A stretch of 64,000 nt of DNA from Octopus vulgaris. Lineage: Eukaryota. The translations under genes were made by a program, and so were the position numbers. The stretch spans positions 17,422,001-17,486,000 of the forward strand of contig OX597822.1 in the NCBI GenBank assembly GCA_951406725.2. The letters run 5' to 3'. Below the pieces are notes generated by a model. It was not told where the DNA came from, did no database searches, and saw nothing but the letters and a program-made list of their open reading frames with translations. Below, piece after piece: positions 34,996 through 53,347 of the stretch. Positions within the stretch are counted from its first letter, which is position 1, and every line of letters begins with the position of its first letter.

Positions 34996-36278
34996 ATATG
35001 AAATAGGTTTTCATTTGAAACTAAATACAGAAACTAATCTGATAAATTTCTGATTTTCTCTATTCTTGTCTTAGAGAATACGCAAACATTAAATATGACA
35101 ATATGGTTGAACTGTTACATGTGGTATTGGTTGTGGTTCAAGATAGGCTGTAAATGTAATTTACTACACATTCTCTGAATACATCAACTCCACTGGGGTA
35201 ATGGCAGTCAACATTTACAGGTTGATACCGTTGTTTTATTGCATCTTCAAGTAAATTCAGTGTAATTGTACTAAGATGCATAACAACAAAGACCAAACAC
35301 AGATGGCATATGTAGGCTGATGCACTTTAGTTTCAAGCAAAAACAATTCAAATCTTTTTTTATTGTTTCATAAAGAGAGAAGAAAATCTTTATATGTCAG
35401 CAATATAACCATCATTCAATTTTTGTTCATTTTTCTTTTATGCTTCATGTTTATATACAATATTTCTATTAGAACGAAGAAAAAGAAGTAAACTATATCA
35501 TAAAATGACTGCATAACTATCAAGTGAAAGTATATAAAAGTGTCCTTGAAGTTAAACAATAAGAAAAAAGTTTCTATAGTACGGGAAAATATGACTAATA
35601 TAGTAAAACCAGATAAATCATTAGGCATATTGTTTAGCTGGTATTTAAAAAAAAAATCAACAAATAATACACAGAAATGGTCTTGTTATGAGAAGGGAAA
35701 CTAATACTGCTTATTGTCGTAAAATAGGATTTTATTTTGACATGTTTCACTAATGCACTACATTTCATATTTTCTAAATCTTTTTCTTGTTGAAGAGATA
35801 CACAAACATTCCAAAGAAGCCTTTTACTTATGAGAAGAAAAAATTATTGATAAAATATATTTGTTTATATATTCACACACACATATATATTTTCCATTTC
35901 TATAAGAAAGATAGATATTTATAACTCACTGTTGGAAGTAACTAGTTATGTGCATGTAACAAAATTGAATATACTGTTCTTATCAAAATTAGATATGACT
36001 ATAATCCCAAAATCAGATCAAATTCATAATTATGAATAATAAATTTCTCACTCTTCCTCACCTAAACAAAAAAAAAAAACAAAGAAAAAAAAATTTCCAA
36101 TTCTCCTTCTTGTCTAGTTTGGCAAATCAAATGCAAATTCAAAATTTTGTTAAAATTACAGCCCAAAATTGACCAAAATACAGGATGATATCATAAAAGG
36201 CATAGTTGATTTTCCACTCACCATATAAAGTAATCCAATTAACAATACACCACACTTAATAAATCATATTGAGCATGT

Positions 36279-50254: not shown

Positions 50255-52442
50255 TATGTAACCTCTTAGAGCTTAAGTTTGTACTGAAACATTCCAGATT
50301 GTTTCACACAATATTCAGTAACTATTTGCTAAGTATGAAGTATTTAAACTATCCGGCTTGAATTTCTATACTACAAAAATTGTAACCATTAACTTTGTGT
50401 AAGTATTAAAATACTGTATAAAGCATACATATTACTTGCATAATCCTACCTAAGTCTTATTTTCAACCATGTGATTGTGTGTGAATGTAAAGGGATGAGA
50501 GAGAAAGAATATTTTCTTTGTTGCAGTGTCTTGCATGCTTAATGTATTGTCTTTCGTAAGGTAGAAATTTGAGCAATATTCAAAGTTATTTGGTATGTTG
50601 TTTGAGTATATTACAAGGGTGCTTGCGTAAATTCCAAAAGCTTCTTTTACACAGTAAGACTATTCATGATTTAAGCTTCTTTCAATTCTTCTGGTGCCTT
50701 TGTGTACTGGTGACTTCTTAAATGTTATTGATCTAATGCCAATATGCAAATTACCACACACGATATGCATAACTTTTCTACAGCAAAGTAATTTTGTAAA
50801 CTTTTGTAGTTATTGTAATCATTATTGGCGATGTAGTAACAAAAGTTAAATGGACTTGGAAGACCTGAGCTTTTTACCAAATATCTGAGATATATAGTCC
50901 CAAATTTTCACAGTCATACTATATAACTTAACATAGCTACAGCTTCATCAGGAGGAATGAGGAATCAGGAAAAAGGATGTACCCAAATGATATTTTATGG
51001 TTCTTTGTTATGTCCCTTTATATTCTGACTTCAGATCTTAGTCAATTTTGCTTTTCAGCTTTATGAGATAGATAAATAAAAACTACCTGCTATAAAATGT
51101 TAATGTATTCAAATATACCCAAAAAGACTTCAGCATGACCAATGACTGAAATCAGTAAAATAGTGAGAATATAGGACAATTTGGGATTTTCATGCTATGC
51201 ATATAAATGCATATGAATGTAAGAGTATGTGCAAGTAAACATGAGTGTGTCTTTGCAAGTTTGTAGGTTATGAGAAAGATAATAGTTTTTAAATAGTCAG
51301 CATCAAACATAAATAGCTGTAGACAATTACATTAATTTTTGCAGATACAATCAGTAGCATTTTATAAGTTAGTAAGTAGATATCGATTCTGATCCAGTTG
51401 AGAGTGGGTTGTACGACATATGGAATTTCTCTGCTAAGCATAAATTGGAAATCTTACTAATTTTCTGAATTGTATTACAATGAGCTGTTTATTTTAGAAC
51501 AGTGACTAAAGCAGGTGATATGTTTGCGAAAACTATTCTCGATTATTACACTGATCTCTCTTTCTCTCTCTCTCTCTCTGCATGCACATGTGTGTGTGTG
51601 TGGTACAGAGGTTAATTGCCTCAGTTTTTAAGGACAAAAATATCCAGTCTTTATAGATATCTGTAGGACTTTAATGGAAGCCTCAAAAGTTGGTTGAATT
51701 AAAATTTGAACTTAGTGTTGATGTCTTTTATCACAGCCATTGCTTAGAGGGAATGATTTTGAAATTGTACTATATCGGATATATACATGGGTTAAACAGG
51801 AACAATAATTGTTATTTCTATTAGACATACAGATGTGTTAAAATGAACTTTGCAAAGTTTAGCGAGTTATCTCAAATCTTCAACAACAACAACAGTTCTT
51901 AACAATAATTTAAATTTAGCTCAGAGTTTTAGTAAGAGATCAATTTTATAATCTTTAATAATTATTAGGCAACAATAAAAAAAAAGTAGAGATCAAAAAA
52001 ACTAAATTATGAAAGTTATAATAGATATGAAAAGAAATTCAAACAGGTTTTTTGTATGATTATAATCATATGAGTCCTGTTTATTGCAAAATAAATAAAA
52101 ATTAAAAAATTCTTTTTTGAAATTTTAAAATTCAGTAATTAAAGAATATCATAGATAAAATCAGAATAGTAGTTCTACTACATATTTAAATATATCTAGA
52201 AAAAGTTTTAAAATTAATTTCACATACAACTGATATTGTTTGATAAAATATAACCATAAAGATGAGAATAAGTAAAGAATTCTGATAATAACCTCTTTAA
52301 GAAAGCCTACAATAAGGAACTACCAGTCTATTATCTGACAATTTATTTCAGTTAAAATGGTTAGTTATTCTGAATCATTAACAATCTAAATTGATAATTT
52401 GAAAATCTGTTTAAAACTTGTGAGAGAACAATATCACATGCT

Positions 52443-52497
52443 ACTCACCAATATTTGACAAGAGCACTTACCTGCAATAAAAGAAAGGAAATCAGTA
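52443..52497 (-). promoter_or_regulatory. Candidate recursive splice site (3'SS abutting 5'SS) with a 23-nt RS-exon at 52471-52449
   Basis: Minus strand: tactgat ttcctttcttttattgCAG|GTAAGTgctcttgtcaaatattg|GTGAGT. Confidence 0.5.
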
Positions 52498-53347
52498 ATT
52501 CAATAAAATAAGCTCTCAATATATAAATATAATTCAATAATATAAACTATAGCATGAAATAAATTTTTTTAAAATTCATAATTAACTGCAGAATAATATG
52601 CGAGAATAATTTTAAAAAAAACTCGCTTGTGGTTATTAAGAGTTATAATAGTTTTGTAGAAGGAAATAGAATACAATTGGTTTTGCACTGAACGAACAAG
52701 AAAAATTGTTTTGAAATACAATTAAATATCAATTATACAACATTCAGGTGTCACAGACGTTTTTCTTATTTTTTCTTTTATTTTTTTGTGATGTGGTGAT
52801 GGTGGTGGGACATCAGTGCATTTTTAGTCCTATATCCCAAGCTAGAGATTAAATATTGTTCTTCAAATATGAGTCGATGTTACATTATGATGATACAAAC
52901 CAATGTAAGAACTAATAAACTAAATGAAAATGCCATTAACACATTCTAATTAATAATCATAACCTTCCTTTTTTTCCCCAGACAGGAACAATAATTGTAC
53001 ACAACTAGCTGAAGAGTGATATAAAAGAAGTTTTTAAAATTAACAAATAATTAGCATTTCTACAAAATGAATTGCAAATTAATTTCTGATTTGAAAGAAT
53101 GCAAAACACTACACATCAAAAAAATTTCCTCGTGGCCTTTCAATAATATTTCCTTTCCAACTTTGTCAGATTGTTATCAATTATTATTATTACTGCTTCA
53201 TCCAAAATAGAAGAAAGTAAAACAATAATAAAGTGTATACAATTTTTTCTTTTTAGATTCTTGATTTGTAACCTCCTGGGTTTCAAACTCATACAAATAT
53301 GATACTTAACTCTATATATATCTGATACATCTGATACTTAACTCTAA

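Follow-up and report, generated by a model that had tools for sequence, protein, structure and literature searches.

A candidate ratchet point with a cryptic RS-exon in the 239.5-kb first intron of octopus RXYLT1

The stretch of DNA analysed here, a window of 64,000 nucleotides from Octopus vulgaris, lies entirely inside intron 1 of RXYLT1/TMEM5, a minus-strand intron of 239,540 nt. We identified the host gene through an open reading frame in the flank, 141 kb above the splice site described below, combined with a homologue search. The frame matched ribitol-5-phosphate xylosyltransferase 1 of the argonaut and carried the Pfam domains RXYLT1_N and RXYLT1_C; the six RXYLT1 exons follow one another in order along 493 kb of the minus strand, and the protein sequence of exon 1 is identical to that of annotated Octopus RXYLT1. 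The exon 1 donor falls at the window equivalent of position 193062, and from window base 1 it is 46,478 nt down to the start of exon 2. A first-pass annotation made from the letters of the window had proposed that it sits inside a giant minus-strand intron and that the plus strand is A-rich. The intron exists, and the compositional bias was borne out as well: 45 of the gene's 47 ten-kb blocks have more T than A on the minus strand. Among the open reading frames of the 64-kb window we found no convincing coding frame or host exon, and a candidate exon at L010, which has no Pfam match and falls outside RXYLT1, was rejected.

Intron 1 also houses frames of transposon type. An open Tc1/Tc3-type transposase frame of 339 aa (L007:7898-8914, plus strand) has a GC content of 0.56, compared to about 0.32 for the genome; it looks recent, and was possibly acquired horizontally. 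A 473-aa PIF1-like helicase frame (L006:2136-3554, minus strand) presumably belongs to a Helitron. Head to head with RXYLT1 and on the opposite strand, another gene starts about 2.9 kb from the RXYLT1 ATG (L015:2098-2403, plus strand); it shows a weak RlmL_1st match, and we take its product to be THUMP-domain methyltransferase-like.

The features of the locus, in window coordinates, are:

1 to 64000, minus strand: part of intron 1 of RXYLT1/TMEM5, from exon and homologue mapping
52491 to 52497, minus strand: branch-point-like TACTGAT, a candidate with its A at -21; the same in the DNA of a related species, organism E
52475 to 52490, minus strand: polypyrimidine tract; one T-to-C change in organism E, which keeps the pyrimidine
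52472 to 52474, minus strand: 3' splice site CAG, joined to exon 1 in a presumed RNA contig of organism E
52466 to 52471, minus strand: putative ratchet-point donor GTAAGT; the regenerated CAG/GTAAGT scores 9.2
52449 to 52471, minus strand: candidate cryptic RS-exon of 23 nt, between the acceptor and the second donor
52443 to 52448, minus strand: second, weaker donor TTG/GTGAGT, with its GT at 52448; matrix score 4.4
52292 to 52475, minus strand: cover of the junction contig from run X20, unspliced across both donors
52342 to 52347, minus strand: AATAAA, 124 nt below the site; three presumed RNA contigs extend beyond it

Read on the minus strand, the site consists of TACTGAT, a pyrimidine tract and an acceptor that directly abuts a donor (CAG/GTAAGT) at 52472/52471, followed 23 nt later by a second donor, TG/GTGAGT. 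The first-pass annotation had reported this arrangement, and re-reading the strand confirmed each part and its position. Pyrimidines make up 15 of the 17 nt directly before the CAG. The motif AGGTAAGT is present once in the window, both strands counted, namely at the site itself; a tandem-repeat search of the window returned no repeat overlapping it, and the surrounding 241 nt have one match in the 2.8-Gb genome in a search that skips very common words. When the site was compared with a randomised background, as had been proposed, none of 200 resamples of the strand under a first-order Markov model contained an equally good one; this background underrates pyrimidine runs.

Splice sites were scored with an approximate metazoan matrix. 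The regenerated donor reached 9.2, compared to 6.6 for exon 1's own donor and 4.4 for the second donor. Within 1.5 kb downstream of the site the second donor is the only other donor that scores at least 3, which disfavours a longer cassette exon. A matrix scan of the five introns of the gene (491 kb, both strands) ranked the site as the best-scoring fusion of acceptor and donor; fusions numbered four on the sense strand of intron 1 and none on its antisense strand, and introns 2-5 had none. The site divides intron 1 into 140,591 and 98,949 nt, 59% of the way along. Intron 1 holds a second single-copy fusion, TAG/GTAAGT, 92.7 kb below exon 1 (L005:6386, minus strand, window equivalent 100386), which has no good second donor and could be a further splicing step. 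A weaker sense-strand fusion, with a long T tract and TAG/GTGAGG, lies at window position 36061 (minus strand) and is without a second donor.

Exon 1 ends in phase 1, and its final bases are CAG, so that joining it to the acceptor recreates CAG/GTAAGT. Inclusion of the 23 nt shifts the reading frame, and translation would end after 30 codons of exon 2, 81 nt upstream of the junction with exon 3; reading on past the site into the intron meets a stop after 12 added codons. At the protein level, the 23-nt insert was present in none of the five database proteins that cover the end of exon 1 (seven were aligned, two of them without exon 1). Because the 23 nt cause a frameshift and none of these five proteins contains the insert, an ordinary coding micro-exon, which the first-pass annotation had offered as its alternative, is disfavoured. 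A search for a short protein of 25-81 aa made of exon 1 plus the read-through returned no match, a result that carries no weight either way. One annotated isoform of Octopus bimaculoides (P0003 in alignment A1) skips exon 2 in frame, and the donor regenerated at the site could also feed such a path.

Evidence from RNA comes from a related species. Contigs of four sequencing runs (X9, X10, X19 and X20) were aligned to positions 52270-52740 (471 nt); that X9, X10 and X20 are RNA is our guess, and the library type of X20 is not on record. Runs X19 (DNA) and X20 (presumed RNA) derive from organism E, a relative that differs from this genome by 19 substitutions over the 471 nt. From X20, a contig of 204 nt with a depth of 3.6 aligned to 52292-52475 and carried a further 20 loose letters, whose single genome match directly precedes the last four bases of exon 1. 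Those four bases, GCAG, are also the last four of the acceptor, and the loose letters together with the shared GCAG make the contig a product of exon 1 joined to GTAAGT at canonical sites. It holds 24 nt of exon 1 and continues unspliced for 180 nt beyond the join, 157 nt past the second donor and also past the AATAAA, which is what an intermediate of recursive splicing would do. The join spans 140.6 kb in this genome. A junction from an upstream exon to 52471 that continues unspliced, as had been predicted from the motif, is thus seen in one presumed RNA contig of organism E, which falls under the multi-read thresholds of published screens.

The junction contig shares all 8 of its differences with the DNA of organism E. 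In the DNA run, a contig of 2,737 nt spans the same stretch without a loose end of exon 1, and this speaks against the junction stemming from a deletion or retrocopy in the sampled DNA. Organism E has both donors, the AG and the branch motif without change. There were 0 changes in the 37 nt of the site (P 0.18, from one close relative), and 1 change compared to 3.7 expected in the 76 nt of 52436-52511 (P 0.12), so that conservation was not significantly above that of the flanks.

Noise or artefact would here mean a rarely used chance acceptor, a template switch at the 7 nt that the end of exon 1 and the site have in common (GCAGGTA), or a retrocopied junction in the DNA of organism E. The junction is known from a single low-depth contig, the microhomology exists, local conservation does not exceed that of the flanks, and LINE-like repeats of this genome carry the same motif by accident. 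However, the two joined positions, 140.6 kb from each other, are canonical splice sites, and the acceptor belongs to the best-scoring site in 491 kb of intron; the site is single-copy; the organism E DNA run lacks the exon 1 loose end; and only about 0.001 chance matches of the strict pattern defined below are expected per 64-kb window, as estimated from a scrambled-donor control. We regard noise or an artefact as very improbable.

The position of the presumed RNA contigs raises another explanation. Runs X9 and X10, from one sample of organism A, gave one contig each just below the site and none above it; they left the site itself uncovered and yielded no junction, an outcome without weight in either direction. 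The contigs of X9, X10 and X20 all fall within 275 nt below the site, on the downstream side only, in the 471 nt aligned. Such a distribution, together with the 180 unspliced nt of the junction contig, would suit a cryptic or alternative last exon, in which exon 1 is joined to the acceptor, a poly(A) site follows a few hundred nt downstream, and the truncated transcript dampens RXYLT1. This explanation gains from the presence of AATAAA hexamers downstream of the site, from the lack of any A-rich priming site within 1.2 kb (at most 12 A in 20), and from an in-frame stop past the site, where a base change in organism E leaves a stop codon in place (a single event). PMC7997972 also describes cryptic last exons as favouring long introns. 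A last exon, however, needs neither a perfect donor at its first base nor another one after 23 nt. The contigs run through the nearest AATAAA, the hexamers are near background (3 in 1.5 kb, compared to 1.28 per kb), and AATAAA is not enriched below the genome-wide class of such sites (22 below, 40 above and 43 on the antisense strand). On balance, we consider a last exon unlikely.

To place the site in its genomic context, we counted a strict pattern of ten pyrimidines, NN, YAG and GTAAGT over the whole genome. The pattern has 204 matches, compared to 86 when reversed and 38 when the donor is scrambled to GATAGT. With ten purines in place of the pyrimidines, the counts were 193 (GTAAGT) and 138 (scrambled donor), and the resulting odds ratio for pyrimidine versus purine context is 3.8 (P 1e-11, uncorrected for repeats). 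On the strength of this purine-context control, we rejected the explanation that the 204 matches stem from donors at the ends of ordinary exons. By these sequence counts, strict-pattern sites in this genome seem to number around a hundred or more.

We fetched the first 70 of the 204 matches and the first 30 of the 38 scrambled-donor controls; 18 and 10 of these, respectively, span repeats and were dropped, leaving 52 and 20. A second donor scoring at least 4 lies at +20 to +89 in 17 of the 52 non-repeat sites, compared to 4.5% in eleven control bins (P 7e-11), 1 on the antisense strand of the same 52 and 2 of the 20 control sites, although the bin was picked after the distances had been viewed, and at a threshold of 3 the controls also exceed background (5/20). 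The lengths from acceptor to second donor in the 17 sites range from 29 to 77 nt and divide 5/5/7 by remainder of three, showing no frame preference; the 23-nt RS-exon of RXYLT1 is shorter than these, and shorter than the RS-exons of about 50 nt in flies. The non-repeat sites have T at -5 in 40 of 52 cases (8 of 20 in controls), and the branch motif is weakly raised, at 21 of 52 compared to 11-17. The whole cassette, including the second donor, has 22 matches compared to 2 when reversed; with the second donor scrambled there are 17, all of them by eye copies of one repeat, which means that the raw counts are repeat-inflated. Among the first 100 sites, 10 of the 12 pairs of neighbours no more than 500 kb apart lie on the same strand, compared to 1 of 2 in the purine control. 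Flanks lean towards T in the orientation of the motif at 44 of 70 sites (P 0.03), or 32 of 52 without repeats (P 0.13), values that do not differ significantly from the controls.

Two repeat families carry a ready-made pyrimidine-YAG/GTAAGT, one represented by L096, L098, L119 and the 17 cassette matches, and the other by L083, L084, L101 and L113. Judging by their motifs, both look like LINE fragments. These repeats inflate motif counts, and their insertion into introns could give rise to new ratchet points.

The genome-wide excess also bears on a further explanation, that the 23 nt form a poison micro-exon, included conventionally in some transcripts, which would be subject to nonsense-mediated decay, and skipped in the rest. 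Both of its splice sites exist in identical form in organism E, a stop falls 81 nt ahead of the junction of exons 2 and 3 when it is included, and the X20 contig would equally be an intermediate awaiting removal of the downstream intron. However, the regenerated donor is far stronger than the donor at the exon end, and an exon that starts with GTAAGT belongs to an excess that ordinary exons do not explain. Inclusion was found in 0 of 5 database proteins at the junction, although decay would hide it. A poison micro-exon is, in our estimate, quite improbable.

We conclude that the site is, with a probability of roughly 0.7, a ratchet point, that is, a recursive splice site with a cryptic RS-exon, in RXYLT1 intron 1. 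It combines a fused motif on the sense strand of a long intron with a weaker downstream donor and absence from the database proteins. In the mechanism we propose, the 23-nt segment would first define an exon, allowing the acceptor to be recognised, as suggested by flies and by the genome-wide excess of second donors. Exon 1 would then be joined to the acceptor, as in the one contig from organism E. The stronger regenerated donor would beat the weaker one and splice to exon 2, and we infer that this would leave an mRNA without trace, since the database proteins lack the 23-nt exon. Rare inclusion of the 23 nt is predicted to shift the frame and to be removed by nonsense-mediated decay. The 239.5-kb intron would thus leave in pieces of about 140.6 and 98.9 kb. 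Donor strengths of 9.2 and 4.4 fit the competition model as outlined in PMC8605326. The stepwise removal envisaged in the first-pass annotation is supported by the giant intron and by the exon 1 junction, and removal from the regenerated donor would complete it. In mouse, PMC8797253 lists 84 junction-supported AGGT candidates, of which 19 were recursive by the saw-tooth test and 46 were unannotated exons. A junction alone therefore does not settle recursion, and in the octopus the case draws further on the perfect donor and on the statistics of the class.

According to the literature consulted, recursive splicing has been shown experimentally in flies and in vertebrates, and the two patterns are opposite, with hundreds of fully skipped sites in the former and a handful in mammals. 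Drosophila ratchet points with cryptic RS-exons include those of Ubx, kuz, Bx and luna (10.1101/006163; PMC8605326). The octopus site resembles them in having a tandem acceptor and donor in a long intron, with an annotated donor joined to an unannotated AG/GT, and in its candidate branch point at -21 (the fly range is mostly -36 to -21). It also shares a short out-of-frame cryptic exon, a ratchet donor stronger than the exon-end donor, and membership among many sites per genome. The octopus site differs from the fly sites, as given there, in scale: the predicted segments are 140.6 and 98.9 kb compared to 63,580 nt for the largest fly segment, and the intron is 239,540 nt compared to 132,736 nt for the largest recursive intron of the fly. 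Its candidate RS-exon has 23 nt rather than about 50, and its host is a glycosyltransferase gene.

Like the vertebrate recursive sites and RS-exons of CADM2 and Hs6st3 (PMC6224609; PMC8797253), as these are summarised there, the octopus site has a very long early intron and, in the proposed mechanism, an exon-definition step and competition between donors. Fully skipped sites are given as rare in mammals in the same accounts, at about 10-20, whereas the octopus genome seems to carry strict-pattern sites by the hundred or more. The survey of Shepard et al. (PMC2773006) describes a sense-strand excess of RP-sites in introns longer than 50 kb of four insects and a sea urchin, with no mollusc among the species it names; RXYLT1 intron 1 likewise has its fused sites on the sense strand. 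The enrichment in that survey is computational and without RNA evidence. The cryptic last exons repressed by SFPQ (PMC7997972) share with the octopus site an unannotated long-intron acceptor joined to an upstream exon, with an unspliced run-on. As described there, these exons end at a poly(A) site, need no first-base donor and tend toward the 5' end of the intron, whereas the octopus site lies 59% along.

The author of the first-pass annotation was not aware of recursive splicing described in molluscs or cephalopods, and our literature search, with most subscription papers outside its scope, likewise found no report for octopus, cephalopods or molluscs. What we describe is a known mechanism in a new lineage: an RNA-supported candidate ratchet point in an octopus gene, which is part of a genome-wide class. 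We lean slightly towards the broader view that octopuses remove their transposon-swollen introns by fly-like, genome-wide ratchet points, numbering in the hundreds and using cryptic RS-exons, in segments of at least 100 kb; the RXYLT1 site would then be the first RNA-supported example in a mollusc. An RNA-supported site in a mollusc and a genome-wide excess of fly-type cassettes suggest that the fly pattern is widespread in protostomes. If this view is true, recursive splicing would be an old, protostome-wide tool, and new sites might arise from LINE fragments with a ready-made motif. The finding also suggests how an invertebrate genome of 2.8 Gb could handle introns several hundred kb long, and yields a concrete list of sites that can be tested against existing cephalopod nuclear RNA data. 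Three pairs of cassettes on the same strand, 39-133 kb apart and each with a strong second donor, are, from their sequence, good candidates for multi-step introns: C3:9636738 with C3:9754255, C6:97123276 with C6:97256261, and C22:13129054 with C22:13167642.
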